Assembly (NCBI GenBank): GCA_030690165.1
Contig: JAUYHF010000014.1
Coordinates: forward strand, 34,257 to 98,256
Reading direction: 5' to 3'
Length of the DNA: 64,000 nucleotides
DNA from: Deltaproteobacteria bacterium
GTDB taxonomy: Bacteria; Desulfobacterota; GWC2-55-46; UBA9637
Below are positions 15,364 to 52,088 of the stretch, piece after piece. Position numbers and translations under genes: made by a program. Position 1 is the first letter of the stretch; each line of letters starts with the position of its first letter. The notes under the pieces are model-generated. The model did no database searches, had not been told where the DNA came from, and saw nothing but the letters and a program-made list of their open reading frames with translations.

Positions 15364-16758
15364 ATGGTTAGGCTCAAGATAAAAGAAGTTTTAAAGACTG
15401 TGCACGGTTGTCTTGCAAGCGGGGGCAGTGAGGGTTTAATCAACGGCGTTTCAACAGACTCCCGCACTGTAAATAAAGGAGAGCTTTTCTTTGCCTTAAA
15501 AGGGCCGCGGTTTGACGGCAATAAATTTGTTGGCGATGTGTTTAAGAAAGGGGCGGCAGGGGCTGTGGTATCGTCAGAAGCCAGAAGTTATGGTTTGCAA
15601 TTTGGGATAGTTGAGGTTATTGATACGCTTAAAGCCCTCGGTGATCTTGCGCTATACTGGAGAGAGAGGCATCTCGTCCCGCTTATAGCGATAAGCGGCA
15701 GTTGCGGCAAGACAACAACAAAGGATATGATAGCGTCTATACTTAAAAACTCGCGTCCTATTATAAAGACCGAAGGAAATCTCAATAATCTTATTGGTCT
15801 TCCTCTTACGATATTCAACCTTAACAACATCCACAAGGCCGCTGTGGTTGAGCTTGGAATAAGCGAAAAAGGCGAGATGAAAAGGCTCGCTCAAATTTGC
15901 AAACCAGATGTGGCTGTTCTTACAAATATCGGCGAGGCGCATACAGCTACACTTAACAACGTAGAGGGTGTTGCATCCGCAAAGGGTGAACTCTTTGAAA
16001 GCATGGATGACAATGGGACCGCTATAATAAATATTGATGACCCATGGCTTAAAAAGATAGCAGAGAATATCAACGTAAAAAAGATTACCTTCAGCTTAAA
16101 GTCAAAGGCGGATGTGATGTTAAAAGAGGCGAGTGTCAAGAGGCAAGAGGCAAAAAGTTCATCAGGAATATCCGCCTCATTCTTAGTTATGGGAGAAGAA
16201 ATTCCTGTGAAGTTAAAATATACAGGTACGCATAATCTCTATAATGCCGCAGCAGCCATTGCAGCTACATTTCCCCTTGGTGTAACAAAAGAAGAGATAA
16301 TGGAAGGACTCTATGCCGCGGAAACTATGCACGGCAGGATGGAAATAGTTACCTTGAGAAATGGAATAACAATCATTGACGATACATACAACGCCAACCC
16401 GCTCTCTATGGAAGCGGCTCTAAAGACGCTTGCAGATATGGAGGGCAGAAAGATTGCAGTCCTTGGCGATATGTTTGAGCTGGGAGAGATGTCAGACGAT
16501 GCCCATAAAAAGGTAGGGATGTTTGCGCAGGATACCGGCATAGATATGCTTTTTACTATCGGTGTTTATAGCGATGCTCTGGTAAGCGGAGCAATGGAAA
16601 AAGGTATGTTGCCGGATAAAATATACAAGGCACATGATAAGGCAGAGCTGATTAAGGCGCTTAACAATGTAGTGAAGGAAGGCGATGTTATTCTGATAAA
16701 GGGTTCAAGGGCGGCTGCAATGGAGGAGATAGTAGAAGGGCTAAAAATTGCAAATTGA
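15364..16758 (+). CDS. murF: UDP-N-acetylmuramoyl-tripeptide--D-alanyl-D-alanine ligase MurF
   Basis: P-loop ISGSCGKTTTKDM and Mur ligase domains. The C-terminus ...GLKIAN* runs into the TTGCAAA-based element. Confidence 0.85.
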   Translation: MVRLKIKEVLKTVHGCLASGGSEGLINGVSTDSRTVNKGELFFALKGPRFDGNKFVGDVFKKGAAGAVVSSEARSYGLQFGIVEVIDTLKALGDLALYWRERHLVPLIAISGSCGKTTTKDMIASILKNSRPIIKTEGNLNNLIGLPLTIFNLNNIHKAAVVELGISEKGEMKRLAQICKPDVAVLTNIGEAHTATLNNVEGVASAKGELFESMDDNGTAIINIDDPWLKKIAENINVKKITFSLKSKADVMLKEASVKRQEAKSSSGISASFLVMGEEIPVKLKYTGTHNLYNAAAAIAATFPLGVTKEEIMEGLYAAETMHGRMEIVTLRNGITIIDDTYNANPLSMEAALKTLADMEGRKIAVLGDMFELGEMSDDAHKKVGMFAQDTGIDMLFTIGVYSDALVSGAMEKGMLPDKIYKAHDKAELIKALNNVVKEGDVILIKGSRAAAMEEIVEGLKIAN

Positions 16759-16841
16759 AGATTGCAAATTGAAAAATGCAAAATGAAATAAGTTTTAAAT
16801 TTACAATTTGCACTTTTCATTTTGCAATGGAGCGAAGCGAC
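16743..16841. repeat. Copy 1 of a ~95-bp palindromic TTGCAAA-based element, docked at the mraY start codon
   Basis: aaaattgcaaattgaagattgcaaattgaaaaatgcaaaatgaaat...atttacaatttgcacttttcattttgcaatggagcgaagcgac. Long imperfect hairpin; the 3' end GCAATGGAGCGAAGCGAC lies 2 nt before the mraY ATG. Confidence 0.75.
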
Positions 16842-16843
16842 TA

Positions 16844-17917
16844 ATGTTATACCATTTATTATATCCTTTAGTTAAATACCACACCCTGTTTAATGTATTT
16901 CAATACATTACATTCAGGACAATCTATGCGGTTGTGACTGCCCTGGTCTTAAGTTTTCTGAGCGGACCTTATATTATAAGAAAGCTCTCTCTTATGCAGA
17001 TAGGCCAGGTGATAAGAAATGATGGTCCGGCAAGACATTTGAGTAAAGAGGGAACGCCGACAATGGGCGGTATAATCATCCTTTTTTGTATAATTGTTCC
17101 GACCTTGCTGTGGGCAAATCTTAAAAATCCGTATGTGTGGCTGCTGATAACGGTTACGTCCGGATTTGGCATAGTAGGTTTTATAGATGACTATAAAAAA
17201 TGGGCGCAAAAGGACAGCCGGGGGCTGCGGCCCAGTCATAAGCTTCTCGGACAGTGCATCATCGCCCTCGGCGCAGCCTTATTTCTGTATTTCACAGGGT
17301 TTAACACTTCCATTACTGTTCCATTTTTTAAGAATGTAGTAATAGCGATGGGGTGGGTCTATATCCCATTTGTTATCCTTGTTATAGTCGGGGCGTCAAA
17401 TGCAGTAAATCTCACAGATGGATTAGATGGCCTTGCTATAGGGCCGATAACAATAGCAGCAGCAACCTATATGCTTTTTACCTATCTTACAGGCCATACC
17501 AAGATAGCAAATTACCTCCAGATAATGTATGTGCCAAATAGCGGGGAGCTGACCATATTTGCAGGGGCTATGGTCGGAGCAAGCCTTGGTTTTCTGTGGT
17601 TTAACAGTTATCCTGCCCAGGTATTTATGGGAGATGTGGGGTCGCTTGCGCTGGGAGGGACATTGGGGACATTAGCAATTATTACAAAGCAGGAAATACT
17701 ACTGGTTCTAGTTGGGGGTGTGTTTGTAGTTGAGGCGCTTTCAGTGATCTTTCAGGTGGGGTCGTTCAAACTCAGGGGTAAAAGGATATTCAGGATGGCC
17801 CCGATACATCATCATTTTGAATTAAACGGCTGGTCTGAGCCGAAGATCATAGTGAGGTTTTGGATAATATCCATAATACTATCGCTCATAGCAATAAGCA
17901 CATTGAAACTCCGATGA
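16844..17917 (+). CDS. mraY: Phospho-N-acetylmuramoyl-pentapeptide transferase MraY
   Basis: Polytopic protein with the MraY motifs PTMGG and [13 protein letters not shown]. Start placed at ATG 16844, after the repeat element; the upstream ORF-track start at 16808 lies inside the repeat. Confidence 0.85.
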
Positions 17918-19299
17918 TAATGCAAACAACAATCAGCAAAGAGAGACCACCACTTGATTTAAGAGACAGGAATGTCCTTGTAGTGGGTCTTGCGCGGACA
18001 GGGGTTTCTACCGCCAGATTTTTGAAGGAGAAAGGCGCTATTGTTGCGGCTACGGATATTTTACCGGCATCTCAGATTAAAGACATTGATGACCTGTGCA
18101 GTAACGGCATAGAAGTAGAAACAGGGGGACACAGTATTAAACGTTTTTTAAATGCTCATCTCATTATTTTAAGCCCCGGTGTTTTCCCTGATATAGAGCC
18201 TCTTAAAGAGGCAAGAAAAAAGGGTGTGGAAATCATAAGCGAAGTGGAGCTTGCATTCAATTTTATAAAAGAGCCTATAGTGGCTATAGCTGGAACCAAT
18301 GGAAAAACAACCACAACAACACTGATTGGCAAGATACTGGAATCAGGCGGCAATAAGGTTTTTGTCGGCGGGAATATAGGGCTTCCGTTGATTGAGTATG
18401 TTGCATCAAATCAATCTGCAGATTATATTGTTGTTGAGGTGAGCAGCTTTCAGCTTGAAGGTACCAGGAAATTCAGACCCCATATAGCCGTTCTCTTAAA
18501 TATTACTGAAGACCATCTGGATAGATATGCGAGCTTTGACGAGTATGCTGCCGCAAAGTTCAGGCTCTTTGAGAATATGGAGGAAGGAGATGTTGCTATT
18601 GTAAATTTTGATGATACCACTATCAACTCAAAACTCAAAACTCAAAACTCAAAACCTAAAGTAATACCTTTTAGCAGCAGTAAAATTTTGAAGGAGGGGG
18701 TTTGTTACAATAATAACAGCATTAACTATTCTGTTGGAGGAGTAAAAGAATCCTATCCCACAGCAAATTTCAAACTTAAGGGTATCCACAATATAGAAAA
18801 CATAATGGCTTCCATTGCCGCTGCAAAGGCCTGCGGTGTTTCGAGGGATGCAATATTAAAGACCATTGAAGAATTTAAAGGGCTTCCCCATAGGATGGAG
18901 CTTATAAGGGAGATAAATGGAACGAGCTATTATAATGATTCCAAAGGCACAAATATAGGCGCGCTTCAAAAATCACTTGAAGGGCTTAATGCGCCTGTTA
19001 TCCTTATTGCCGGCGGCAAGGACAAGGGCGGCGATTACAGGGTTTTAAATGATTTGATAAAAAATAAGGTGCGGCATCTGATACTTCTGGGCGAGGCAAA
19101 AAACAAGATAAGGGATGCCTTTAAAGGATTAACAGATATTGCAACAGTTGAGTCCTTGAAAGAAGCTGTGGATATTGCCAGCAATAAGGCTGAAAAAGGA
19201 GATGTGGTGTTATTGTCACCTGCATGCTCCAGCTTTGATATGTTCAAAGATTATAAGGAACGGGGCGATGTATTCAGAAGATTGGTGGAGATGTTATGA
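17914..19299 (+). CDS. murD: UDP-N-acetylmuramoylalanine--D-glutamate ligase MurD
   Basis: P-loop GTNGKTTTT and Mur ligase domains. ATGA overlap with the mraY stop. In-frame heptamer insert ([10 protein letters not shown]). Confidence 0.85.
18624..18660. repeat. In-frame AAAACTC heptamer tract in murD
   Basis: caactcaaaactcaaaactcaaaactcaaaacctaaa. Confidence 0.6.
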
Positions 19300-20399
19300 T
19301 TAAAGTTAGAGAAATAGATAAATCCCTTATCCTTGCTATGATGGCCCTTGTGGCAATAGGCTTTACTATGGTCTATTCCACCACCTACATAATGGCTATG
19401 AAACGGTATGGCAGTGAATATTTCTTTGTAAAAAAACATCTCATATTCAGCGTCTTAGGTTCTCTGTTGTTTTTTGTTGCCGCGAATATAGAGTATCATT
19501 TGTATAGAAGGCGGGCATACTTAATATTTTTTGCAAGCCTTATCTCGCTCATTCTTCTCACATTCATCCCAAGCCTTGGAAATGAGATGGGAGGCGCAAA
19601 AAGATGGATAAGGCTCGGCCCTTTGACTTTTCAGCCCTCTGAGCCTGCCAAACTGGCCCTTATTATATACCTGTCATATTATCTTGCGGCAAAAAAGGAT
19701 AAGATAAAAACCTTTTCCCTTGGCATTGTCCCGCCGATGATAATGAGCGGGCTTATTATACTTTTCATCTTAAAAGAGCCGGATTTCGGAACAGCTTTAT
19801 CTCTTGGCGTAATTACAATTATCATGATGTTCATTGCAGGTGTAAGATTAAGATACCTTTTTTCCATACTTCTTCTTTCAATGCCATTTATTTATCTTAT
19901 GGTTACGAAAGTCGACTATAGAATGAAACGGGTGCTTGTGTTTTTAGATCCATGGAGGGATTCAGGAGGCGCAGGGTTCCAGCTTGTGCAGTCGTTTATT
20001 GCCTTTGGCGCAGGCGGCATCTGGGGTGTCGGCCTTGGCGAGGGGAAGCAGAAACTGTTTTATCTGCCGGAGGCCCATACCGACTTTATCCTTTCTGTGG
20101 TAGGAGAAGAGCTTGGGCTTATAGGGGTTTCTGCGCTCATCATGCTTTATCTGATTGTACTTATCTCAGGCATAAGGATTAGCTTAAAGGCAAAAGACCT
20201 TTTTGGCAAATACCTTGCCGTAGGCATTACCCTCTTAATTGTGCTTCATGCAGCAGTAAATATGGCTGTGGTACTGGCCCTTTTGCCTACAAAAGGACTT
20301 ACCCTTCCGTTTATAAGCTATGGCGGAACATCCCTTGTGGTAAATATGATAGGGATGGGGATACTGTTGAATATATATAAAACAGGAGTCAGGGAGTGA
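19296..20399 (+). CDS. ftsW: Peptidoglycan glycosyltransferase FtsW (SEDS family)
   Basis: 367-aa 10-TM SEDS protein (...FIAFGAGGIWGVGLGEGKQK...PTKGLTLPFISYGG). Confidence 0.85.
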   Translation: MIKVREIDKSLILAMMALVAIGFTMVYSTTYIMAMKRYGSEYFFVKKHLIFSVLGSLLFFVAANIEYHLYRRRAYLIFFASLISLILLTFIPSLGNEMGGAKRWIRLGPLTFQPSEPAKLALIIYLSYYLAAKKDKIKTFSLGIVPPMIMSGLIILFILKEPDFGTALSLGVITIIMMFIAGVRLRYLFSILLLSMPFIYLMVTKVDYRMKRVLVFLDPWRDSGGAGFQLVQSFIAFGAGGIWGVGLGEGKQKLFYLPEAHTDFILSVVGEELGLIGVSALIMLYLIVLISGIRISLKAKDLFGKYLAVGITLLIVLHAAVNMAVVLALLPTKGLTLPFISYGGTSLVVNMIGMGILLNIYKTGVRE

Positions 20400-21532
20400 A
20401 AGGCATGCCTTTCACGGATTTTAGGTTGAGAATTGTATTAACAGGAGGAGGCACCGGCGGGCATCTGTTTCCTGCCCTTGCGCTGGCAGAAGAATTTAAG
20501 GCAAGGGATAAAGATTGCGAGATCCTATTTATAGGAAGCGCTGCGGGCATAGAAAAGGATGTTGTTCCAAAATATGGTTATGCTTTAGAATTTGTGGATG
20601 TAGAAGGCCTTAAAGGAAAAGGGATATATAATAAAGTATCGGCAGGCTTAAAGGCAGCAAAGGCAGTTTTTGCCGCAAAGAAGATTCTTAAGCCATTCAG
20701 ACCGGATGGTGTCATAGGTACGGGTGGTTATTCTTCTGGTCCGGTTGTTTTGGCAGCAAGGCTTTTGGGGATAAAGACAGCTATCCTTGAACAGAATACG
20801 ATGCCAGGTTTAACCAATAGGCTTCTGGGAAGGTTTGTAGACAGGATATATGTGGCATTTGAACAAACCAAAAAAAAAATTCCAGGCGGGAGGGTAATCC
20901 TGGCAGGAAATCCGGTGAGAAAGGAGATTCTGGAAATTGCAAATTGCAAACATGTCCCTGCAAGTATTAAGCAGGGATTGCAAATTGCAAATTGCAAATT
21001 CACAATTCTCATCTTCGGCGGAAGCCAGGGGGCAAAGGCAATAAATACGGCATTTTTAGATGCGCTGGAATATCTCGCTGATATAAGAGACAGCATCAGG
21101 ATTATTCATCAGACAGGGGATGCGGATTACATAACAGTAAAAGAGACTTACGAAAGAAAAGGGATTAAGGCCGATGTCTATAGGTTTATAGATGATATGG
21201 CTCATGCATACTCTCAGGCAGACATGGTGATATGCAGGGCAGGGGCTACATCCATTGCCGAGATAACCGCTCTGGGGATTGCCTCTATACTCATACCATA
21301 TCCATTTGCAGCTAATAACCATCAGGAAATAAATGCAAGATGTTTAGCTGATAAAGGGGCTGCAATCATGATGAGGCAAGGCGAGATTATAGGAGATGCG
21401 ATGGCGGTTCTTATTGAGAGATTTTATAAAAACCCTGATGAATTAAAAAAGATAAGAGAAAATGCAAAAGCTCTGGGAAGGCCGAATGCGGCAAAGGAGA
21501 TAGTGGACAACATTCTACAAATGTTGAATTGA
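20396..21532 (+). CDS. murG: UDP-N-acetylglucosamine--N-acetylmuramyl-(pentapeptide) pyrophosphoryl-undecaprenol GlcNAc transferase MurG
   Basis: N-terminal GGGTGGHLFPALA glycine loop and a GT-B C-terminal domain. Contains a 66-bp in-frame composite repeat insertion. Confidence 0.85.
   Translation: MKGMPFTDFRLRIVLTGGGTGGHLFPALALAEEFKARDKDCEILFIGSAAGIEKDVVPKYGYALEFVDVEGLKGKGIYNKVSAGLKAAKAVFAAKKILKPFRPDGVIGTGGYSSGPVVLAARLLGIKTAILEQNTMPGLTNRLLGRFVDRIYVAFEQTKKKIPGGRVILAGNPVRKEILEIANCKHVPASIKQGLQIANCKFTILIFGGSQGAKAINTAFLDALEYLADIRDSIRIIHQTGDADYITVKETYERKGIKADVYRFIDDMAHAYSQADMVICRAGATSIAEITALGIASILIPYPFAANNHQEINARCLADKGAAIMMRQGEIIGDAMAVLIERFYKNPDELKKIRENAKALGRPNAAKEIVDNILQMLN
20935..21000. repeat. 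Composite in-frame insertion in murG: TTGCAAA units flanking a 25-nt hairpin (gtccctgcaagtattaagcagggat)
   Basis: 66 bp, equal to 22 codons (IANCKHVPASIKQGLQIANCKF). The same 25-mer hairpin recurs in non-coding DNA at 28493-28519. Confidence 0.7.
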
Positions 21533-21620
21533 AGATTGAAGATTGAAAATTTTAAAATGACTGTTTTTCAATTTACAATTTCAAATTTGCAATTTTCAAT
21601 CTGCATTGGAGCGAAGCGAT
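21524..21620. repeat. Copy 2 of the ~95-bp TTGCAAA-based palindromic element, docked at the murC start codon
   Basis: ttgaattgaagattgaagattgaaaatt...caatttacaatttcaaatttgcaattttcaatctgcattggagcgaagcgat followed directly by the murC ATG. Confidence 0.7.
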
Positions 21621-23042
21621 ATGTATAAGGGTCGTATAAAACATATCCATTTTATAGGTATCGGCGGCAGCGGTATGAGCGGCATCGCAGAGGTGCTTTT
21701 AAACCTCGGGTATAATATTACAGGCTCTGACATGAAAGCATCGGATATTACGCGGAGATTGGAAGGCCTTGGAGCTAAAATATTTATCGGCCACAGGCCT
21801 GAATTTATAAATGGCTCAGATGTGGTTGTCTATTCGTCCGCTGTTAAAAAAGATAATCCTGAGATTGTATCGGCAAGGGGAAAACTGATACCTGTTATCC
21901 CGAGGGCAGAGATGCTGGCAGAGCTTATGAGGATGAAATACGGCATAGCAATAGCAGGCACTCACGGAAAGACAACAACTACTTCCATGATTGCGACAAT
22001 CCTCGGCTCACACGGTATGGATCCAACCGTTGTTATAGGCGGCAAGCTCAACAGTATTGGAAGCAATGCCAGACTTGGGAAAGGTGAATTCCTTGTAGCA
22101 GAGGCGGATGAGAGCGACGGCAGTTTTTTAAAGCTTTCACCGACAATTGCAGTGGTTACAAATATTGACAGAGAGCATATGGACCATTACAGGGATATGG
22201 ATGAGGTAAGAGGCGCCTACCTTGCCTTTATAAATAAGATTCCATTTTATGGGTGCGCGGTTCTCTGCATGGATCACCCTAATATCCAGGGGCTTATCCC
22301 AAAGGTTACGAGAAGACATACAACATATGGTTTAACTGCCCAGGCGGATTTCAGCGCCAGAGACATGGAGATAAAAGGAGTTAAAACCTCATTTGATGTC
22401 TGGCAGAGGGGCAGAAAATTGGGAAGGGTTAGTGTGAAGATTCCAGGAGAACACAATGTTTATAATTCATTGGCTGCCCTAACAGTGGCAATGGAGCTTG
22501 ACATGAGTTTTGAAGAGGCAAGAGATTCCCTTTCAAATTTCAGTGGTGTGGAGAGGAGATTTCAGATTAAAGGCGAATATAACGGCATTACATTCGTTGA
22601 TGACTACGGCCATCATCCTGTTGAAATAAAGGCAACACTTAAGGCTGCAAAGGCCGGCTGGGACAACAGGGTGGTGGCAGTCTTTCAGCCTCATCGTTAT
22701 TCAAGGACAAAAGACCTTTTCCAGGAATTTTTATCCGCATTCAATGATGCGGACACCCTGGTGCTCACTGACATATATCCGGCAGGCGAGGGAAAAATAG
22801 AGGGGATTTCTTCAGAGGCGCTTTATAACAGCATAAAGGCATACGGCCATAGAGATGTAGTTTATATACCGGATAAAAAAGATATACCGGATTATTTAAA
22901 TAAAATTACAAAGCCGGGGGATATAGTTATAACGTTAGGGGCAGGCAATATATGGCAGGTATCTGAGGAGATGGTAAAGACAGTAGGCAGTAAGCAGTCA
23001 GCAGTAAGCAGCGCAAACTCAAAAGCAGGAGGTGGAATGTAA
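21621..23042 (+). CDS. murC: UDP-N-acetylmuramate--L-alanine ligase MurC
   Basis: [11 protein letters not shown] and [11 protein letters not shown] motifs. Start taken at MYKG; the alternative MERSD-M start lies inside the repeat element. Repeat-derived C-terminal tail. Confidence 0.85.
22981..23012. repeat. GCAGTAA-type heptamer tract forming the murC C-terminal tail
   Basis: cagtaggcagtaagcagtcagcagtaagcagc encodes ...[13 protein letters not shown]. Confidence 0.5.
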
Positions 23043-23971
23043 TGACATTTCCTATTTCTCATTCTGCGCCCCGTACTCCGCGTCCAGCGCTCTCCGGCTT
23101 CAAGGGCCGCATGCTCTTTGATGTTCCCATGAAGGATTATACATCTTTTAAGATAGGCGGGAATGCGGATGTAATGGCATTTCCAGGAGATGAGAGCGAC
23201 CTTGTGGATGTCATCCGATTTGCCTCTATTAAAGGTTTTCCTGTCTTTGTCCTTGGCAGGGGAACAAATCTATTAGTCAGGGATAACGGTGTAAGGGGCG
23301 TTGTTATAAATCTTTCTGATGGTTTTAAAGAGGTATTATGGATAGGTGACGATGAGGCATCAGTTGGCGCGGGGGTGGGGATAATTGAGTTGGTTAACCT
23401 CTGCAAGGGCAGAGGTTTTGCAGGGCTTGAGTTTGCAGTCGGTATCCCGGGGACAATAGGCGGAGCTGTTTTTATGAACGCAGGGGCATACGGCGGAGAG
23501 ATAAAGGATATTGTGAAAAGAGTGGAGACTGTTGACCTTAACGGTCAAAGGCATAGTTTTGATAAATTATCTTTGAAATTTTCCTATCGGAAATGCGAAC
23601 TGTCTGCAAATATGATTATTACAAAGGCGCATCTGAAATTTAAAAAGGACAACCCGGAAGAAATAAAAAACAGAATAAAGGAATTTAAGGAAAGACGCAA
23701 GACTACGCAGGCGATAATCCTACCCAATGCCGGCTCCATATTTAAAAATCCTCCAGGGCTTTCAGCAGGCAGGCTTATAGAGGAATCAGGCTTAAAGGGC
23801 GTTAAATCCGGAGGCGCGCAGATCTCAGAGGTTCATGGAAACTATATAGTCAATCTTGGCAATGCTACAGCAATGGATGTCCTTACCCTTATGGCAATGG
23901 CAAGGGATAAGGTTTTTAAGGTAAAGGGCATATTGCTGGAAACGGAGATAAAGGTTGTGGGGGAAGATTGA
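23042..23971 (+). CDS. murB: UDP-N-acetylenolpyruvoylglucosamine reductase MurB
   Basis: FAD-binding domain (GGNADVMAFP...LGRGTNLLV) and MurB C-terminal domain. Confidence 0.8.
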   Translation: MTFPISHSAPRTPRPALSGFKGRMLFDVPMKDYTSFKIGGNADVMAFPGDESDLVDVIRFASIKGFPVFVLGRGTNLLVRDNGVRGVVINLSDGFKEVLWIGDDEASVGAGVGIIELVNLCKGRGFAGLEFAVGIPGTIGGAVFMNAGAYGGEIKDIVKRVETVDLNGQRHSFDKLSLKFSYRKCELSANMIITKAHLKFKKDNPEEIKNRIKEFKERRKTTQAIILPNAGSIFKNPPGLSAGRLIEESGLKGVKSGGAQISEVHGNYIVNLGNATAMDVLTLMAMARDKVFKVKGILLETEIKVVGED

Positions 23972-24942
23972 TAAAATTGCAAATTGCAAATTTCAAATCA
24001 AAGAAAATAGGTGTTTTGATGGGTGGGATGTCTACTGAAAGGGGTATTTCGCTTAGGAGTGGTCAGGCTGTTTATGATGCCCTGATTCAAAAAGGTTACA
24101 ACGTTATAAAAATAGATGTTGGAAAGGATGTTTATGAACAGCTCACCAAAGAAAAGATAGATATGGCATTTATAGCCCTTCATGGAAAATACGGCGAGGA
24201 CGGGGCTATTCAGGGCTTATTAGAGATAATCGGGGTTCCATATACCGGGTCAGGTATCATGTCAAGCGCAGTATGCGCAAATAAGGTAGTGGCAAAAAAA
24301 TTTTTTATGCTTAACAAAATACCAACCCCTGCATTTATGAGTTTAGGAGTTAAGGGGTTAAAAAACATGGGTGTTGAATCTTTCATATCCATGTTTAAAG
24401 CCCCTGGCTCCCACCTTATTGTAAAGCCTAATTCGCAGGGCTCTACCATTGGTGTAACCGTGGTAAAGAATAAAAGCGATTTGGCAAAGGCAGTAAAAAA
24501 GGCTTTGCGCTACGATGATACTGTGTTGATAGAGAGATTTGTAAAGGGCAGGGAACTGACTGTCGGCATATTAAACGGCAGAACATTGCCGGTTATAGAG
24601 ATAAGACCGAAGGGCGGGATATACGATTTCAAGGCAAAGTACACAAAGGGTATGACAGAATATATTGCCCCTGCCCCGCTTCCAAAGACGCTTGAGAAAA
24701 AGGTGAATAGTATCGCCTTGAAGGCATTCGATAGCCTTGGATGCCGCGGCGCTGCAAGGGTTGATATAATGCTTGATTATAAAAACAGGCCGTATGTGCT
24801 GGAGGTGAATACCATACCCGGTATGACCGAAATGAGCCTCCTTCCAAAGGCCGCTCTTTGCGCAGGCATAAGTTTTCCGGAGATGGTGGAAGAGATTTTG
24901 ATGGGGGGTATAAAACATTTTCGGGGCAAAGGAATGGCATGA
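23968..24942 (+). CDS. ddl: D-alanine--D-alanine ligase
   Basis: ...IGVLMGGMSTERGISLRSG and ATP-grasp motifs (EVNTIPGMT). The N-terminus overlaps a TTGCAAA repeat (IKLQIANFK), so the true start may lie slightly downstream. Confidence 0.8.
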   Translation: MIKLQIANFKSKKIGVLMGGMSTERGISLRSGQAVYDALIQKGYNVIKIDVGKDVYEQLTKEKIDMAFIALHGKYGEDGAIQGLLEIIGVPYTGSGIMSSAVCANKVVAKKFFMLNKIPTPAFMSLGVKGLKNMGVESFISMFKAPGSHLIVKPNSQGSTIGVTVVKNKSDLAKAVKKALRYDDTVLIERFVKGRELTVGILNGRTLPVIEIRPKGGIYDFKAKYTKGMTEYIAPAPLPKTLEKKVNSIALKAFDSLGCRGAARVDIMLDYKNRPYVLEVNTIPGMTEMSLLPKAALCAGISFPEMVEEILMGGIKHFRGKGMA

Positions 24943-25897: not shown

Positions 25898-27124
25898 ATG
25901 GCAAAGAAGGATAATATAATCGTTGGTCTTGATATTGGAACAACAAAGATATGCGCCATTGTTGGAGAGGTAAAACAGGAGGGGCTGGAGATTATAGGCA
26001 TAGGCACACACCCTTCAAAGGGCTTGCGAAAAGGCGTGGTGGTAAATATAGATTCCACAGTCCAGTCTATAAGAAAGGCCGTGGAAGAGGCTGAGCTTAT
26101 GGCGGGATGCGAGATAAATACGGCTTATGTCGGTATTGCGGGCGGACACATAAAGGGATTTAACAGCCACGGCGTTATAGCTGTAAAGGATAAGGAGATA
26201 ACAAAGGCTGACATAGCAAGGGTTATAGAGGCTGCTCAGGCCGTAACCATTCCAACAGACAGGGAGGTTATACATATAATACCTCAGGAGTATATCCTTG
26301 ACCAGCAGGACTGCATACAGGAACCGCTTGGCATGACAGGAACAAGGCTTGAGGCAAAGGTTCACATAGTTACTGCTGCGGTTGCATCAGCGCAGAATAT
26401 CGTAAAGAGCGTGAATAAGGCCGGTCTTGCCGTAGCGGATATTGTCCTTCAGCAGATAGCAAGCAGCGAGGCGGTGTTAGGCCATGATGAAAAAGACCTT
26501 GGCGTTGCGCTGATTGATGTTGGAGGCGGAACCACAGATATAGCCATATACCATAACGGAACCATAAAACATACTGCGGTTATATCGCTTGGAGGGAATC
26601 AGATTACAGGGGATATCGCTGTAGGCATCAGAACGCCTGCCGAGGAGGCGGAAAAGATAAAGAAAAAGTTCGGCTGCTGCATGATATCAATGATAGATAA
26701 GGATGAAACCGTAGAGGTGCCCGGCGTTGGGGGCAGGAAACCAAGGATTGTTTCAAGGCAGATTTTAGGAGAAATTATTGAGCCAAGGGTAGAAGAGCTT
26801 TTCCAGCTTGCAAATCAGGAGATAGTCAAATCAGGTTATGAAAGTGTAATAGTGTCAGGAATTGTGCTTACAGGCGGAACAGCTATTATGGATGGCATGG
26901 TTGAGCTGGCAGAGCAGATTTTTAATCTTCCTGTCAGAAGAGGCATGCCAACAGGCATCGGCGGACTTGTTGATGTTGTGAGGAGCCCAATGTATTCCAC
27001 AGGCGTGGGGCTGGTTTTGTATGGCAAAAAACATTCGACAATAGCAGTGTTTGAAAGGGGGGATAAACAGGTATTCAACAAACTGCTTGAAAGGATGAAG
27101 GGATGGTTCAAAGAGTTCTTCTAA
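25898..27124 (+). CDS. ftsA: Cell division protein FtsA
   Basis: Actin-like ATPase motifs (IVGLDIGTTKICAIVGE, DVGGGTTDIAI). Confidence 0.9.
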   Translation: MAKKDNIIVGLDIGTTKICAIVGEVKQEGLEIIGIGTHPSKGLRKGVVVNIDSTVQSIRKAVEEAELMAGCEINTAYVGIAGGHIKGFNSHGVIAVKDKEITKADIARVIEAAQAVTIPTDREVIHIIPQEYILDQQDCIQEPLGMTGTRLEAKVHIVTAAVASAQNIVKSVNKAGLAVADIVLQQIASSEAVLGHDEKDLGVALIDVGGGTTDIAIYHNGTIKHTAVISLGGNQITGDIAVGIRTPAEEAEKIKKKFGCCMISMIDKDETVEVPGVGGRKPRIVSRQILGEIIEPRVEELFQLANQEIVKSGYESVIVSGIVLTGGTAIMDGMVELAEQIFNLPVRRGMPTGIGGLVDVVRSPMYSTGVGLVLYGKKHSTIAVFERGDKQVFNKLLERMKGWFKEFF

Positions 27125-27205
27125 TTACGAATTGCGATTTCGGATTGCGGATTCTAAATCCCAAATCCGAATTCTGCAATCCGCAATCTAAAAAAGGAGG
27201 TATAT
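27125..27205. repeat. Palindromic intercistronic element between ftsA and ftsZ (GGATTGC/AATCCGC units)
   Basis: gaattgcgatttcggattgcggattctaaatcccaaatccgaattctgcaatccgcaatc. Followed by the RBS AAGGAGG and the ftsZ ATG. Confidence 0.6.
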
Positions 27206-35074: not shown

Positions 35075-36579
<1,505 letters not shown>

Positions 36580-39593: not shown

Positions 39594-40190
39594 TTAATGC
39601 AGTCTGACCTTTTCCAGATACTCCTTTATAAGCCTTTCATGGTCAGCGGCGCTAAGTTCGCCCCGCAGTATTTCTTCTGCCATCTCAACTGCCACCTTCG
39701 CAATCTCTCCCTTAATCTCTTCCATTGCCTTCTTAATCTCCTGTTCTGCCGCAAGTCTTGCCTGTTCTTGTATCCTGTCAGATAGCTTAATAGCCTCTTC
39801 TATAATTCTTTTCTTTTCAATCTCTCCTTCTTCCATTATCTCCTGATAAATCTCTTCTATCCTTTTGTCAAGAGAACTGAATTTCAGTTCAAACTCCTTT
39901 ACCTTTCTTTCAGCATCTTCCTTTGCCTTTTTAGCCTCTTCCAATTCGACAATTATTGACTTCTTTCTATCGGCAAAAAAATCTTTTACCTTGAAATACC
40001 TAAGCATTAAAAATAGCGCCAGAGCAAGTATTGCGAAGTTCACAATACGCCATACCATGCCGCTTTCGCCGCCATGCCCGCCTTCTTCAGCGGCAAGAAC
40101 CGGAGAGGCAATAAACAGCAGACAGTAGACAGCAGACCGTAAACAGTTCAATAAAATTTGAAATTTGAAATTTGAAATTTGAAATTTCAT
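39594..40190 (-). CDS. atpF: F0 ATP synthase subunit b. The N-terminus is encoded by a tandem AAATTTG heptamer tract.
   Basis: Start taken at the ATG at 40190, giving MKFQISNFKFQISNFKFQILLNCL..., then a TM helix and a long charged coiled-coil (EEIYQEIMEEGEIEKKRIIEEA...). The longer ORF-track extension to 40367 overlaps atpF' out of frame and is rejected. Confidence 0.65.
   Translation of the reverse strand: MKFQISNFKFQILLNCLRSAVYCLLFIASPVLAAEEGGHGGESGMVWRIVNFAILALALFLMLRYFKVKDFFADRKKSIIVELEEAKKAKEDAERKVKEFELKFSSLDKRIEEIYQEIMEEGEIEKKRIIEEAIKLSDRIQEQARLAAEQEIKKAMEEIKGEIAKVAVEMAEEILRGELSAADHERLIKEYLEKVRLH
40153..40190. repeat. Tandem AAATTTG heptamer array forming the atpF start and N-terminus
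   Basis: aaaatttgaaatttgaaatttgaaatttgaaatttcat, about five units, ending at the start codon on the minus strand. Confidence 0.7.
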
Positions 40191-41818: not shown

Positions 41819-42655
41819 ATGCGAAAAATCTCTACGCTCGATATAACTTCAAAAGTTAAAGAACTTTGCATAAAGGCTGCGTGTGAACTTGGCATGGATG
41901 TTGTGTTTGCATTGAAAGAATTCAAGGGAAGGGAGGAATCTCCTTTGGGCAAAGAGGTGCTTGACCAGATTCTTGAAAATGCCCAGATTGCCCTGAGGGA
42001 AGATGCGCCCATGTGCCAGGATACGGGTATTGCAGTATTTTTTGTTGAAATGGGCAGGGATGCAATAATTGACGGCGGGTTGGAGGATGCAATAAACGAA
42101 GGAGTGCGGCAAGGATATAAAGAAGGTTATCTTAGAAAGTCTGTTTGCCATCCACTCACAAGGAAGAATACAGGGGATAATACACCTGCCATAATCCACA
42201 CGAGGATTGTAGAGGGTGACAGGCTCAAGATAACAATAGCGCCAAAGGGCGCAGGCAGTGAAAACATGAGCAGGCTTGCCATGCTCAAGCCGTCTCAGGG
42301 CTTGCAGGGTATAAAGGATTTTGTGATAAACACAGTGAAAGAGGCCGGTGGAAATCCATGTCCTCCGATTATTGTCGGTATCGGTATTGGCGGGAATTTT
42401 GAAAAAAGCGCACTTCTCGCAAAAGAGGCGCTTTTAAGAAATATCGGAACACCAAATCCTGAGAGGGAATTGGATGTCCTTGAAAAGGAATTATTGGAGA
42501 AGATAAATAATCTCGGCATAGGGCCGATGGGTTTTGGCGGAAGGACAACAGCCTTGGCAGTTCATATAAAAACAGCGCCATGCCATATTGCAAGCCTGCC
42601 TGTTGCAGTGAATATACAATGCCATGCGGCAAGGCATAAGGAGGCAGTAATATAA
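41819..42655 (+). CDS. fumA: Class I (Fe-S) fumarate hydratase, alpha subunit (tartrate/fumarate hydro-lyase family)
   Basis: 278-aa N-terminal catalytic half of the two-subunit Fe-S hydro-lyases, with a cysteine-containing motif (CQDTGIAVFF). Confidence 0.75.
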   Translation: MRKISTLDITSKVKELCIKAACELGMDVVFALKEFKGREESPLGKEVLDQILENAQIALREDAPMCQDTGIAVFFVEMGRDAIIDGGLEDAINEGVRQGYKEGYLRKSVCHPLTRKNTGDNTPAIIHTRIVEGDRLKITIAPKGAGSENMSRLAMLKPSQGLQGIKDFVINTVKEAGGNPCPPIIVGIGIGGNFEKSALLAKEALLRNIGTPNPERELDVLEKELLEKINNLGIGPMGFGGRTTALAVHIKTAPCHIASLPVAVNIQCHAARHKEAVI

Positions 42656-42754
42656 AAAATTGTAAATTGAAGATTGCAAATTGCAAAGTTAAAAGAACTG
42701 CGCAATTTACAATTTGCATTTTTCAATCTTCATTTTGCAATGGAGCAAGGCGAC
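42656..42754. repeat. Copy 3 of the ~95-bp TTGCAAA-based palindromic element, docked at the fumarate hydratase beta start codon
   Basis: aaaaaattgtaaattgaagattgcaaattgcaaagttaaaagaactgcgcaatttacaatttgcatttttcaatcttcattttgcaatggagcaaggcgac followed directly by the ATG. Confidence 0.75.
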
Positions 42755-43315
42755 ATGACTCACCCAATCAAAATAACCCCGCCCCTTACTGATAAGGATG
42801 TAGAAAAACTTAAGTCAGGGGATAAAGTCTTGATAACCGGTGTTCTTTACACTGCAAGGGATGCCGCGCACAAGAGGCTTATAGAGCTTTTAGATAAGGG
42901 CGAAAAGCTCCCTTTTGATATAAAAGGACAGTTAATCTATTATGTGGGGCCTACACCGGCAAAACCAGGGCAGGTCATAGGCTCTGTAGGACCTACAACA
43001 AGCGGAAGGATGGATGTATATACACCTAAACTTTTAGAACTTGGGTTAAAAGGGACAATCGGCAAGGGACAACGTTCGGCAGAGGTAGTTGATGCGATGA
43101 ATAAGCACAAGGCTGTTTATCTTGCGGCAGTGGGCGGTGCAGCAGCGCTGATTGCAAAGACCATTAAAAAGGCGGAGATTATTGCGTACGAGGATTTGGG
43201 GCCGGAGGCGATCAGAAGGCTTGAGGTTGTAGATTTTCCGGCAATTGTTGTGAATGATATTTTCGGAAATGATTTGTTTAAGATTGGTGTTGAAAGGTAT
43301 AAGAAGGTCGAATAG
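42755..43315 (+). CDS. fumB: Class I fumarate hydratase, beta subunit
   Basis: 186 aa from MTHPIK... (GVLYTARDAAHKRL...GPTTSGRMD). The ORF-track start at 42674 lies inside the repeat. Confidence 0.75.
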   Translation: MTHPIKITPPLTDKDVEKLKSGDKVLITGVLYTARDAAHKRLIELLDKGEKLPFDIKGQLIYYVGPTPAKPGQVIGSVGPTTSGRMDVYTPKLLELGLKGTIGKGQRSAEVVDAMNKHKAVYLAAVGGAAALIAKTIKKAEIIAYEDLGPEAIRRLEVVDFPAIVVNDIFGNDLFKIGVERYKKVE

Positions 43316-44369: not shown

Positions 44370-44434
44370 TTTTCACCCTCCCCTTTGTCCCCTCCCGTCA
44401 AGGGAGGGGAGATTTCTTAAAGTTCCTCTCCCCT

Positions 44435-44469
44435 TGCGGGAGAGGGTTAGGGTGAGGGGGAAGTTTAGG
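44435..44469. repeat. GC-rich hairpin repeat (cctctccccttgcgggagagggttagggtgagggg), copy 1. Preceded by a second GC hairpin cccctcccgtcaagggagggg.
   Basis: Identical 35-mer at 48611-48645. 8-bp stem cctctccc/gggagagg with loop cttgc. Confidence 0.7.
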
Positions 44470-48610: not shown

Positions 48611-48645
48611 CCTCTCCCCTTGCGGGAGAGGGTTAGGGTGAGGGG
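48611..48645. repeat. GC-rich hairpin repeat, copy 2 (identical 35-mer)
   Basis: cctctccccttgcgggagagggttagggtgagggg, immediately after the hdrA stop. Confidence 0.7.
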
Positions 48646-48649
48646 TTGG

Positions 48650-49015
48650 ATGAGGAAACCTTGGTTCGCAATAATCTGGTTTGCTTTTTGGGGAATTTTT
48701 CAGGCATATGCCGTTACTATGGTTTTACTTAGCAAATGGAAGAGACCGGAGGCATTTCCTGAAGAGGCATATAATGCGCTCATCTGGCCGGATATGGTTT
48801 TTATTCCGTTATATTTTTTGACAGCGGCTCTTTTATATAAAGGGAAAAGATTGGGTGAGATTTTAGGGGTGTTTTCAGGCGGCGCAGTCACTTATGTTAT
48901 GGTTTATCTCTTTGCATTATCAGGACTGCACGGCGCGGTGAATATGATTTTTGATGGTGCGTTTTTGGGGCTGAATATTGGCGCGACTTTGCAGATTATT
49001 AGCAGACTGATTTGA
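48650..49015 (+). CDS. Small hydrophobic membrane protein (about 4 TM), hypothetical
   Basis: 122 aa from MRKPWFAIIWFAFWGIF.... The upstream TTG start at 48620 overlaps the GC repeat. Confidence 0.45.
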   Translation: MRKPWFAIIWFAFWGIFQAYAVTMVLLSKWKRPEAFPEEAYNALIWPDMVFIPLYFLTAALLYKGKRLGEILGVFSGGAVTYVMVYLFALSGLHGAVNMIFDGAFLGLNIGATLQIISRLI

Positions 49016-50055: not shown

Positions 50056-50061
50056 AGACAG

Positions 50062-50970: not shown

Positions 50971-50972
50971 CT

Positions 50973-51992
50973 ATGGCAAACAAATTTCTCAAAAAAGAAA
51001 ACATCGGCAAATTGATCGAGGCCTTGAACAAGGAAGGCAGTGCCTTTGTTGCACCTAAACTGGATGCACGACAGGTGGTGTATGCCCCTGTTATAAATGC
51101 GGAAGAGATAGTTTTTGACTATATTGTTCCGGTAAATTCTTTTAAAAAGTTTCTGTTTCCGCAGACAGAGCCGATTGCCGAGTTCAATATAAACAAGGAA
51201 GGCGTAGTTTTAAAGGGTATTGAAATAGAGCCAAAGGAAATAATAATCTTTGGTTCGCGGCCTTGCGATGCAATATGCTGTTCATCTTTAAGGTCGGTGT
51301 TCAATTGGGATTTTAAGGATGAGTTTTACAACAGGCGAGAAGACAAGGCAATTGTCATAACCGTAGCCTGCACAAAGGCCGATGACAGTTGCTTTTGCAC
51401 AACCGTCAATCTTACGCCTGATAGCCCAAACGGAAGCGATATATTATTAAAAGAAACGGTATCTGGAGATTATACAGCAGAGACAATCACAGAAAAGGGC
51501 AAGGCATTTATAAAAAGGTTTGAAAATATCTTCAGCCCTCAGCCTTCAGCCGTAAGCCACAAGCCAATTGCCGATGTAAAACCCATAGCAGGCATTGATG
51601 TAAAAAAAATTAAGGAATATCTCAAAGACACAAAACATTATGAAAATCCAATTTGGGCTGAACTATCAAGAAAATGTATAGGCTGCGGCGCATGCACCTT
51701 TGCCTGTCCCACATGCCACTGCTTTGACATTGTGGATGAGGGGAGCGCATTTGAGGGAAAAAGGATAAAGAACTGGGATGCGTGCCAGTTTGAATTTTTC
51801 ACTCTTCACACAAGCGGACACAATCCGAGAGACACGCAGTATAAAAGATGGCGCAACCGGTTTATGTGCAAGTTCAATTTTTATCCGAACAAATTTTCAT
51901 CCCGCGGTTGCGTTGGGTGTGGAAGGTGTATTCGTGTATGTCCAGTAAGGCTGGATATAACAGAGGTTATGGAGGAGGTAACAAAATTGTAA
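50973..51992 (+). CDS. flxB: Fe-S cluster protein of an Flx-type module (AsrA-like 4Fe-4S)
   Basis: CIGCGACTFACPTCHC and CVGCGRCIRVCP motifs. Confidence 0.55.
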   Translation: MANKFLKKENIGKLIEALNKEGSAFVAPKLDARQVVYAPVINAEEIVFDYIVPVNSFKKFLFPQTEPIAEFNINKEGVVLKGIEIEPKEIIIFGSRPCDAICCSSLRSVFNWDFKDEFYNRREDKAIVITVACTKADDSCFCTTVNLTPDSPNGSDILLKETVSGDYTAETITEKGKAFIKRFENIFSPQPSAVSHKPIADVKPIAGIDVKKIKEYLKDTKHYENPIWAELSRKCIGCGACTFACPTCHCFDIVDEGSAFEGKRIKNWDACQFEFFTLHTSGHNPRDTQYKRWRNRFMCKFNFYPNKFSSRGCVGCGRCIRVCPVRLDITEVMEEVTKL

Positions 51993-52088
51993 ATTGAAGA
52001 TTGCAAATTGGAAAATGCAAAGTTAAAAGAAACTTCAAATTTACAATTTGCACTTTTCAGTCTTCATTTTGCAATGGAGCGAAGCGAC
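51984..52088. repeat. Copy 4 of the ~95-bp TTGCAAA-based palindromic element, docked at the flxA start codon
   Basis: aaaattgtaaattgaagattgcaaattggaaaatgcaaagttaaaagaaacttcaaatttacaatttgcacttttcagtcttcattttgcaatggagcgaagcgac followed directly by the ATG. Confidence 0.75.

Follow-up and report, generated by a model that had tools for sequence, protein, structure and literature searches.

The window analysed here is a stretch of 64,000 nt from the metagenome-assembled genome (MAG) of an uncultured groundwater 'Deltaproteobacteria' bacterium (contig JAUYHF010000014.1, positions 34,257 to 98,256), a host in which rapidly evolving heptamer arrays crowd the operon junctions and the permissive loops of proteins. 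Four of its junctions between co-directional genes carry copies of one repeat element, in which an imperfect hairpin built of heptamers is followed by a 21-nt tail that ends at, or 2 nt before, the start codon of the downstream gene. We propose, with a probability of roughly 0.55, that this element is a non-autonomous repeat of the copy-and-paste type, able to persist in zero-spacer junctions because it brings its own stop codons and Shine-Dalgarno (SD) sequence. Heptamer or REP-like intercistronic repeats with a portable ribosome-binding site (RBS) are a known kind of sequence; the sequence of this family is new to the literature searched, and the family is notable for a 21-nt module conserved to the nucleotide in many phyla and for its precise docking at gene starts.

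Four docked copies in the window

The original prediction, made from the letters of the window, had described four copies of a common architecture, and all four were confirmed on the + strand and could be aligned over their full length. They share an approximately 80-nt imperfect heptamer hairpin, followed by the 21-nt tail TTTGCAW-TGGAGCG-AAGCGAC. The left array consists of TTGCAAA, TTGAAGA and TTGTAAA units, and the right array, made of their complements, runs in phase into the 21-nt (3 x 7) module; in copy 1, the right arm and tail read, in 7-nt phase, TTTACAA TTTGCAC TTTTCAT TTTGCAA TGGAGCG AAGCGAC. A search of the window with the 18-nt tail pattern GCAATGGAGCGAAGCGAC, allowing up to three mismatches, returned four matches against 0.01 expected, and four or more matches were obtained in 0 of 100 shuffles. 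Sequence of the element is not confined to these four copies, as bare (AAATTGC)n arrays of the same unit also occur in murE, in murG and at the ddl start. According to Pfam, the flanking genes are murF and mraY (copy 1), murG and murC (copy 2), fumarase alpha and beta (copy 3), and the genes of a 4Fe-4S protein and of an NAD-binding/DHODB-FeS flxA-like protein (copy 4). The copies and their flanks are located as follows:

16743-16841, + strand: copy 1, murF-mraY junction, main hairpin at about 16747-16828
16821-16841, + strand: tail of copy 1 (TTTGCAA TGGAGCG AAGCGAC), with GGAG at 16829-16832
16756-16758, 16842-16844 and 16844-16846, + strand: flanks of copy 1, namely the murF stop TGA inside the left arm, a TAA, and the mraY ATG
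21524-21620, + strand: copy 2, murG-murC junction, tail at 21600-21620 (TCTGCAT TGGAGCG AAGCGAT), with GGAG at 21608-21611
21530-21532 and 21621-21623, + strand: flanks of copy 2, namely the murG stop TGA inside the left arm and the murC ATG
42656-42754, + strand: copy 3, fumarase alpha-beta junction, tail at 42734-42754 (TTTGCAA TGGAGCA AGGCGAC), with GGAG at 42742-42745
42653-42655 and 42755-42757, + strand: flanks of copy 3, namely the upstream stop TAA and the downstream ATG
42640-42644, + strand: native-looking SD (GGAGG) of the copy 3 junction, now about 110 nt from the ATG
51984-52088, + strand: copy 4, junction of the Fe-S protein and flxA-like genes, tail at 52068-52088, with GGAG at 52076-52079
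51990-51992 and 52089-52091, + strand: flanks of copy 4, namely the upstream stop TAA inside the left arm and the downstream ATG
51971-51978, + strand: displaced native-looking SD of the copy 4 junction (GGAGGAGG)

The distance from the tail end to the conserved ATG is 2, 0, 0 and 0 nt in copies 1 to 4 (start codons at 16844, 21621, 42755 and 52089), which agrees with the predicted 0-2 nt, and the spacer between GGAG and ATG measures 11, 9, 9 and 9 nt, in support of the claim that an SD-like sequence precedes each start. The copies had also been said to abut the stop codon of the upstream gene; this is the case for copy 3, in which the stop lies just before the left arm (42653), whereas copies 1, 2 and 4 hold it within the left arm (16756, 21530 and 51990). 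Stop codons in all three frames are present in copies 1, 2 and 4. The further proposal that the element supplies the ATG itself, in frame with three of the four genes, did not hold: copy 2 has ATT in its place, an in-frame tail ATG is found in copies 3 and 4 only, and in copy 1 the MERSD mini-open reading frame (ORF) ends at a TAA overlapping the mraY ATG (TAATG). Across the wider family described below, the tail ATG is replaced by ATT in 19 of 62 copies (31%), and its frame relative to the gene varies.

The 120 flxA-like homologues start with MNNIYLP and none contains MERSD, nearly all MraY homologues listed (including all the closest ones) are 357 aa long, and murC and mraY of relatives use the same start codon as in the window. 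Since homologue N-termini, MraY length and the start codons of relatives agree, the docked ATGs are genuine starts, and the sequence preceding them is a true repeat rather than ordinary 5' coding sequence, as had been predicted. The longest-ORF starts of mraY, murC, fumarase beta and the flxA-like gene (TTG codons at 16808, 21606, 42674 and 52008, respectively) fall within the elements, and automatic start-codon calls at such junctions are unreliable. Some deposited flxA-like homologues (P0126, P0130-P0133) carry N-terminal extensions of 18-22 aa.

The most improbable of the alternatives considered is that ATGGAGCGAAGCGAC, which encodes MERSD, represents a conserved leader peptide or N-terminal extension, serving either as an upstream ORF or as part of the protein. 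The in-frame tail ATG of copies 3 and 4 would suit it, as would two high-GC MAG loci (L112, L037) in which the tail ATG may open the downstream ORF. However, the reading was rejected because the extension occurs in 0 of the 120 flxA-like homologues and ATT stands in those 19 of 62 copies; moreover, offsets of 1 and 2 nt break the frame, and the tail ATG lacks an SD of its own, the sequence upstream of it being the stem.

Folding of the four copies, which had also been anticipated, predicted a long imperfect hairpin in each (-27.8, -20.9, -28.7 and -29.2 kcal/mol for copies 1 to 4, with z scores of -3.75, -1.94, -3.41 and -3.71), and GGAG lies just 3' of the stem, unpaired or weakly paired, in all four predicted folds. 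The suggestion that the hairpin sequesters or presents the SD does not apply throughout, since the left arm is present in only 32 of 65 family copies, about half, and the hairpin is polymorphic while the tail stays. In 25 of the 32 hairpin copies, folding favours the sense over the antisense strand (7 show the opposite), with 127 G-U pairs; this bias fits a structure acting as RNA or on one DNA strand, although base composition could contribute to it. RNAalifold, applied to a MAFFT alignment of 19 copies, yielded only a stem (UUUGC/GCGAA, loop AAUGGA) that was marginal and lacked compensatory pairs, in an alignment whose 7-nt register shifts prevent the big hairpin from being represented.

An intrinsic terminator was considered and rejected: all four stems are AT-rich and are followed by GGAGCG, unlike the GC-rich stem and U tract of such terminators, and a scan of positions 14000-24500 revealed no terminator-like site at copies 1 and 2. 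Sigma-70-like promoters over the same interval showed no consistent site at these two elements (17 found versus 23.6 expected). At the gathering score, Rfam 15 matched only tRNAs in the window and 18 loci, and a permissive Rfam search of copy 3 gave only sub-threshold, generic hairpin (miRNA-like) matches. The tail sequence, in either orientation, was not found in the literature searched, in which the small dispersed repeat (SDR) families of Elhai et al. 2008 were not compared.

Spread of the tail and its position relative to genes

A degenerate tail pattern (15 fixed and 4 degenerate bases) matched at least 120 genome stretches, with an estimated ~70 chance matches; genome matches were therefore accepted only with TTTGCAA-like heptamers directly upstream of the tail, and a stricter pattern was used for metagenome and viral contigs. 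The stricter pattern identified 37 metagenome loci and gave 0 matches in viral contigs, and the sole match in the phage collection was a 19-nt chance match. After removal of near-duplicates, at least 62-64 non-redundant tail copies were obtained among the matches listed. The carrier MAGs are labelled Stahlbacteria, WOR-3, Edwardsbacteria, Nitrospirota, Nitrospinota, several 'Deltaproteobacteria', Desulfobacteraceae, Hydrogenedentota, Chloroflexota/Oscillochloris, Cyanobacteria, Bacteroidota, Phycisphaerales and Actinomycetota, more than 10 phyla in all, and host GC content ranges from 0.37 to 0.69 at loci with a called downstream start. Furthermore, plasmid BLAST located the tail in cultured Nostocales, namely Nostoc sp. 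PCC 7120 (pCC7120alpha, near 213,950), Nostoc sp. HK-01 (plasmid1, near 407,535), N. flagelliforme (devB-devC junction), Fremyella/Tolypothrix, Calothrix and Aulosira; an annotated ATG follows the tail of Nostoc HK-01 without any gap.

Among the 64 copies listed, 25 end 0-3 nt from a co-oriented start codon (0 nt, n=12; 1 nt, n=6; 2 nt, n=4; 3 nt, n=3). Under a null based on the gene density of the window, with 10.2% non-coding DNA and random intergenic placement and orientation, docking at 0-3 nt has p = 0.019, against which the observed proportion gives P = 2e-26, and the predicted docking is thus well beyond chance. The docked copies precede at least 25 unrelated genes with no common functional theme, including some that, from their N-terminal sequences, we take to be rpmG, fusA, ruvC, ruvA, coaX, hypC, rbcS-like and thiF-like genes. 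GGAG lies 9-12 nt before the start codon across the 25 docked copies, and in 21 of them (22 when a contig-cut tuf gene is counted) a co-directional upstream ORF ends no more than 130 nt away, which indicates that the docked copies fill operon junctions completely.

A second mode, comprising about nine copies, lies at 10-17 nt, with a native SD directly after the tail (AAGGAGG, AAGGGGG, ACGGAGG or GAGGAGG). Offsets of 4-9 nt are represented by one copy at 5 nt, a tandem-tail artefact at 6 nt (L131) and two probably spurious GTG ORFs in Stahlbacteria/WOR-3. The tabulated distances thus bear out the predicted docking for 25 copies but not for about 20 others, which adjoin no start codon. The tail is equally conserved in the latter, so SD function alone cannot explain its conservation. 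Copies in Stahlbacteria and WOR-3 have, after the tail, mosaic repeats of the TATCTCTGTG type and, beyond these, a promoter-like TTGACA of a co-oriented gene (read by eye), and in cyanobacteria TTGACC or TTGACT often comes after it. At one locus (L068, 6283-6380), 4 nt separate the tail end from a downstream tRNA-Gln gene, and docking is therefore not limited to protein start codons. In Bacteroidota (L076 at ~4154-4260, L104 and L094), about 70 nt after the tail are shared (CTTGCCCTTCGGGAAATC...CTTCG...GTGAATAC) and are partly complementary to it. The right flanks vary among ATG, TATG, AATG, AGATG, TAATG, AATATG, CCCATG, AAGGAGG and TATCTCTGTG, and no fixed insertion target was found on either side with both strands examined.

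Two further observations concern these flanking sequences. In Stahlbacteria and WOR-3 (L007, L012, L039, L065, L085 and others), intergenic regions are mosaics of AATCTGTGTCTAAAA, TTAGGATTTAGGATT and CTCTGTGGCAAAAA repeats, and the heptamer-tail module sits in these mosaics, at times inside a larger GGAGGAGGG...CCCTCCTCC hairpin. The sequence that follows the tail in Bacteroidota has no Rfam match and may be a separate structured element.

As a DNA strand, the tail module reads d(TGGAGCGAAGCGAC) and contains d(GCGAAGC), which, in work by Hirao et al., is said to form an exceptionally stable DNA mini-hairpin. The diverged tail at tuf-rpmG (L138) has GTGAAAC instead of GCGAAGC and keeps both stem pairs, a single observation; three copies of L143 have AGAG instead of GGAG and keep GCGAAGC; and variants at R positions keep the GC...GC frame, at positions that the search pattern biases. 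The comparison of these variants gives a thin hint that GCGAAGC, rather than the SD, may be the constrained core.

In two metagenome loci (L131, L150), the exact 21-nt block is tandemly duplicated before ruvC. Several tandem units of about 100 nt each are found in L143 (5-236) and L150 (~3850-4575), both of GC 0.57-0.58, and within each of them heptamers and the tail lead into the initial ~35 nt of ruvC (ATGAGGATCATCGGCGTGGATCCCGGAACAC), so that the element appears duplicated together with 5' coding sequence. As a separate observation, L124/L157 and L129/L153 have the same downstream gene, right arm and tail (>98% identical), whereas everything upstream differs from the loop leftwards, where L129/L153 have an apparent WD40-repeat gene, as read from the sequence; either a rearrangement had its breakpoint within the loop, or the repeat gave rise to an assembly chimera.

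Copying, a proposed retention model and alternative explanations

Presence/absence polymorphism at orthologous junctions, which the original prediction had proposed to look for, was observed at ftsL-ftsI and murG-murC, and polymorphism of the hairpin at rpsG-fusA. At ftsL-ftsI, the window and its relative L161 read GGTAAAATGA, a stop/start overlap corresponding to the empty site, whereas the relative L162 holds an 85-nt element (GTGAAAATTGCAG...CAATGGAGAGAAGCGAC) between GGTAAA and ATGACT. This element ends with GGAGAGAAGCGAC and directly adjoins the 5' side of the ATG, and the TGA stop of ftsL is rebuilt by the opening bases of the element. The filled/empty pair is explicable without duplication, and an (A/G)TGA repeat at both edges, with the element starting GTGAAAA, is also possible. 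In silico removal of copy 1 leaves CTA AAA TAA TG, an overlap of the murF stop and the mraY start. Removal of copy 4 would give an ACA-AAA-TGA overlap, which is unconfirmed in relatives, the nearest of which carry a different heptamer hairpin at this place and the more distant L165 a 19-nt spacer. Moreover, to the immediate left of both copy 3 and copy 4 there is a native-looking GGAGG, which at present stands about 100 nt away from the ATG.

At rpsG-fusA, related metagenome contigs show either the short form AATTGCAATTTGCAATGGAGCGAAGCGAC-AAA-ATG or the same tail behind a 76-nt hairpin; one contig has an extra 28-nt loop duplication, and indels occur in 7-nt steps. As judged from these contigs, the hairpin is acquired and lost, whereas the tail persists.

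The dcw clusters of four relatives (L159-L162; MraY identity 84-94%) and three flxA-like loci (L163-L165) were compared with the window. At murF-mraY, all four relatives have a heptamer hairpin abutting the ATG, composed of units unrelated to those of the window (AGGAATT/AATTCCT in L159, AAATGTC/TTTGACA in L160 and L161, and GTTGCAA/TTGAAAC in L162), and the GGAGCGAAGCGAC tail is absent from this junction in L159-L162. At murG-murC, the tail is present in the window and L161, which share an unusual GCGAT variant, with a different heptamer hairpin nested inside in L161; it is absent in L162, which has a GTAGACA/TGTCTAC hairpin (-44.7 kcal/mol, z -6.35), in L160, which has five direct CTTGCCT units, and in L159, which has almost nothing (ACTGTCTACTGT-ATG). 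The Fe-S/flxA junction contains an AACTGTA/CAGTTCA hairpin in L163 and L164 and a plain 19-nt spacer in the more distant L165. On this comparison, orthologous junctions turn over rapidly, with hairpins of unrelated heptamers replacing one another. Docking is not special to the tail, since unrelated heptamer hairpins abut the ATG too, in relatives as well as in the window.

In our proposal, junctions of co-transcribed genes that had no spacer, being originally ATGA or TAATG overlaps, received the element by copying or retained it. The left-arm stops in all reading frames would let the upstream protein still terminate, and the unpaired GGAG, 9-11 nt before the untouched start, would replace the native SD, pushed about 100 nt upstream. 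With the native SD displaced, imprecise loss would silence the downstream gene, and through such a retention ratchet docked copies would persist while copies elsewhere decay. The hairpin would be transcribed within the polycistronic mRNA, acting as neither terminator nor promoter, and may modulate mRNA stability, processing or coupling. In tight junctions, only an insertion that has its own stops and SD and leaves the start intact would be tolerable, which would account for both the anatomy of the element and its bimodal offsets. Because the tail is conserved where no start follows, it would be the end recognised by the mobilising machinery, rather than an SD only.

Several points weigh against this proposal. 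No transposase partner, terminal inverted repeat (TIR) or unambiguous target-site duplication (TSD) was found, so that the term mobile draws solely on the distribution and on the filled and empty sites. The long spacers of the window are without any copy, though random insertion followed by selection predicts some, and targeting or positive selection may thus be needed. In the five junctions read, which are not a systematic sample, native SDs lie 5-7 nt from the ATG, and the 9-11 nt of the tail is longer. An SD is irrelevant for the tRNA-gene copy and for the Stahlbacteria/WOR-3 copies before TTGACA. The unrelated-heptamer hairpins at orthologous junctions could mean that the structure itself is selected, that is, a host function. 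Finally, MAG phylum labels may include binning errors, and chance matches are estimated at ~70 for the at least 120 genome stretches. A cognate full-length insertion sequence (IS) with the same ends was absent from the 8-kb loci around the matches, the span searched, and among ~170 loci an inverted tail pair occurs only in L076, with the partner downstream, 32 nt apart.

Tentatively, the element may instead be a host-beneficial cis-regulatory RNA module, with the hairpin and SD tail kept by selection to set relative expression within the operon. It might protect the upstream mRNA from 3' exonucleases or provide a processing site for RNase III/E, couple translation (by terminating in the left arm, a ribosome would open the stem and release the SD-adjacent region), or form a binding array for a heptamer-reading RNA-binding protein. 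A similar proposal exists for the TAACTGA repeats (PMC4679880). Such a module would fit the retention of a hairpin where the heptamers are replaced (murF-mraY in L159-L162, Fe-S/flxA in L163 and L164, and murG-murC in L162, z = -6.35), the upstream stops inside the left arm, the better fold of the sense strand (25 versus 7) with its 127 G-U pairs, and an orientation strictly co-directional with the downstream gene. However, about half of the tail copies lack the hairpin, near-identical orthologous junctions are polymorphic for it, and plain spacers or tight overlaps occupy the same junctions elsewhere (murG-murC in L159, the L165 spacer, and ftsL-ftsI in the window). Palindrome arms can co-evolve mechanically, by strand-switch templating and slippage, so the persistence of a hairpin does not prove selection; no common functional theme links the downstream genes, and 7-nt register shifts defeat the alignment on which covariation would be judged. 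We also consider, with doubt, an actively targeted mobile element that an enzyme inserts strand-specifically at the 5' edge of gene starts. A single-stranded DNA (ssDNA) HUH-type transposase reading the GCGAAGC mini-hairpin would be the candidate, and docking would be a property of the insertion reaction. The sharp offset peak at 0 and the lack of copies in the neutral spacers of the window favour it, together with the asymmetric ends without TIR or clear TSD, the d(GCGAAGC) of the tail, whose L138 version GTGAAAC keeps two stem pairs, the three L143 copies with AGAG in place of the SD but with GCGAAGC, and the conservation of the tail across hosts of 37%-69% GC and off gene starts. Nevertheless, neither flank shows a conserved target, selection for a working RBS predicts the bimodal offsets (0-3 nt, or immediately 5' of a native SD), and unrelated heptamer hairpins dock likewise; no transposase was identified at the loci, viral contigs gave 0 matches, and the compensatory change is a single observation.

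Growth purely in situ, by slippage of microsatellites and palindrome formation with nothing moving between loci, is highly improbable for the tailed copies, as it cannot explain why more than 60 unrelated loci, spread over many phyla, share an identical, non-repetitive 21-nt tail, nor the 85-nt insertion into an ATGA overlap. It probably explains much of the non-tail heptamer background, in which period-7 runs are uniquely enriched (7 exact runs in the window versus 0 in 20 dinucleotide shuffles, and none with periods 4-6 or 8-12). The same protein loops carry different units in relatives, resembling concerted evolution, indels occur in 7-nt steps, one loop is duplicated in a relative, and the murC array in L162 and L159 degrades into the start codon (CTGTCTA CTGTATG). 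On a wider view, which we regard as speculative, the 21-nt module and the arrays would mark a DNA-writing system, as yet undescribed and spreading horizontally, that acts strand-specifically at gene 5' boundaries (start codons, SDs, promoters and a tRNA gene) in many phyla. Such a system would amount to a mobile element that targets gene starts, or to a generator of heptamer arrays, and would also solve the puzzle, 35 years old, posed by the cyanobacterial repeats of the short tandemly repeated repetitive (STRR) type.

The claim that the element had not been described stands for its sequence, but its kind has precedents in TAACTGA repeats, STRR and Neisseria REP2. The TAACTGA repeats, which are the closest precedent in behaviour, are direct repeats with a heptamer unit, known from marine Beggiatoaceae, some Cyanobacteria and Bacteroidetes; they lie in forward orientation, end about 1 nt before start codons, in some cases overlap the upstream ORF end, show 7-nt-step indels between strains and have a patchy distribution that suggests horizontal spread (MacGregor 2015, PMC4679880). 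The tail family is alike in orientation, start proximity, 7-nt indels and patchiness, and by our own reading the TAACTGA unit contains TAA and TGA stops, just as stops are present in the left arm of the element. The TAACTGA repeats are direct, with one inverted case, without a conserved non-repetitive tail and with little SD character (PMC4679880), whereas the element described here is an inverted pair with a conserved 21-nt GGAG module and different units. The closest precedent in function is provided by Neisseria REP2 and Borrelia IR, which have internal stem-loops and lie directly upstream of ORFs, to which they bring an RBS (Delihas 2011, PMC3184786); here, GGAG is likewise located at the 3' end, directly upstream of the ORF. 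REP2 also carries a promoter and a used ATG, whereas the element has no promoter signal, its ATG is unconserved, and it lies inside operons rather than at their heads. We know of no sequence relationship between the element and REP2 or Borrelia IR.

The cyanobacterial STRR heptamers, with CCCCAGT, TTGGTCA and CAACAGT as the units of STRR1-3 in heterocystous cyanobacteria, were reportedly described by Mazel et al. in 1990. The genome studied here resembles their hosts in being rich in heptamer tandem arrays at gene junctions, with 7-nt steps, but its units (TTGCAAA, TTGAAGA, TTGTAAA and many others) include none of STRR1-3 and it is not a cyanobacterium. SDR repeats of Nostoc, attributed to Elhai et al. 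in 2008 (cited in PMC3116915), are said to be 21-27 nt long; the tail, of 21 nt, is within this range and occurs in plasmids of Nostoc, Fremyella, Calothrix and Tolypothrix. The REP/BIME/REPIN, ERIC, Correia/NEMIS and Chunjie families are also short non-coding hairpin repeats co-transcribed in intercistronic space, and REPINs share the inverted doublet hairpin in extragenic space (here, the left arm is found in about half of the copies). Chunjie, a MITE (miniature inverted-repeat transposable element), lies in a Geobacter operon without disrupting it, as reported by Chen et al. 2008, a paper listed in PMC3184786. Unlike REP/REPIN, the alignments show no GTAG-type head, and no RAYT or IS partner was identified at the loci; unlike Correia and Chunjie (21-bp TIR and 9-bp direct repeat in the latter), no such TIR and no unambiguous TSD was found. 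Heptamer substructure and an asymmetric 3' module are not features of the REP, ERIC, Correia and Chunjie families. Rickettsia palindromic elements (RPE) are repeat units found in frame within coding genes at permissive loops, whereas the in-gene pieces observed here are bare, stop-free heptamer arrays and not the whole palindrome.

Three further candidates were rejected or are unsupported. A classical MITE is contradicted by the lack of an inverted counterpart of GGAGCGAAGCGAC at the 5' end of any window copy. An integron attC site does not match the boundaries AAAATTG... and ...GCGAC, which differ from R''/R' (RYYYAAC...GTTRRRY), nor the flanking dcw and energy-metabolism genes, which are in conserved order. 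An IS200/IS605 PATE would not have flanks that vary on both sides without a fixed 4-5 nt target, and the candidate mini-hairpin is at the 3' end only, where a PATE would have subterminal hairpins at both ends; this failed test lowers the PATE claim and not that of ssDNA mobilisation.

Start-adjacent heptamer repeats such as STRR and TAACTGA have been known for decades without a function or mechanism. The non-repetitive, nucleotide-conserved tail offers a marker for tracing single copying events across genomes, and natural experiments are available in the filled and empty sites and in orthologous junctions in which one heptamer hairpin replaces another, as are tractable hosts among the cultured Nostocales, including the Nostoc sp. 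PCC 7120 plasmid. If the tail serves as an RBS, a repeat element would have taken over the initiation of translation in essential operons such as dcw (mraY, murC), which would exemplify concretely how a selfish insertion becomes indispensable. Additionally, the elements shift predicted start codons and, being repeats, may create assembly and rearrangement breakpoints in MAGs.

Heptamer arrays and other repeats of the window

In the output of Tandem Repeats Finder for the window, 28 of 60 rows have period 7 and 9 of 60 have period 14 (counted by hand). Most co-directional junctions longer than ~30 nt hold heptamer arrays or hairpins, but these are built from other units, such as AGTCACC, AGTGTTA, GGATTGC, TAGCTCA, CCTATAA and ACAGTAG/AAATTTG. 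An ATG directly adjoins some of these non-tail arrays; a native SD, for example AAAGGAGG, comes after others. Those at junctions are the following:

7858-7940 and 8305-8404: heptamer junction elements
15298-15363: heptamer array/hairpin at the murE-murF junction
27124-27206: heptamer element at the ftsA-ftsZ junction
35030-35075 and 36496-36580: junction elements of the TAGCTCA family
37440-37499 and 40112-40187: further heptamer junction elements

Heptamer arrays also occur in or at the edges of coding sequences:

14536-14568, + strand: bare (AAATTGC)x4.7 array inside murE, encoding NCKLQIANCKF in a variable loop, with no stop in any frame
20934-20950 and 20977-21000, + strand: two (AAATTGC)n arrays inside murG, flanking a small hairpin, an insert that is absent or different in relatives
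23974-23998, + strand: (AAATTGC)x3.6 array between the murB stop and the ddl start, in a longest-ORF N-terminal extension absent from ddl orthologues
15298-15332, 18625-18655 and 22981-23011: other in-gene heptamer arrays, at the murE C-terminus, in murD and at the murC C-terminus, respectively
63140-63287 and 63774-63806: further heptamer arrays within coding sequence

The in-gene arrays of the TTGCAAA unit contain only this stop-free unit and have, by inspection, neither hairpin nor tail, whereas the junction copies hold the TGA- or TAA-bearing variants TTGAAGA, TTGTAAA and TTGAAAA. The in-gene arrays that were compared lie at variable loops or C-termini and encode 7-residue peptide repeats. 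MurE, MurD and MurG orthologues have arrays in the same loop with different units (NLKFKISNFKF, for example, in MurE), and the in-protein arrays thus appear to undergo concerted evolution.

Among the junction elements, those with TAGCTCA/CTATGAG units at 35.0 kb and 36.5 kb share sequence and so constitute a second multi-copy family. A separate REP-like family is represented by the GC-rich palindromic CCTCTCCCCTTGCGGGAGAGG, with two exact copies (44425-44445 and 48611-48631) against 0 expected, one of them intergenic and the other across the start of the ORF at 48620-49015. In the flxA-like locus L163 (4473-6233), two tandem nucleotidyltransferase/HEPN pairs (Pfam NTP_transf_2 and HEPN) lie between the flx-like gene and the next FAD-binding gene; the counterpart of this stretch in the window, at ~53.7-55.1 kb, is much shorter, and the spot may be variable.

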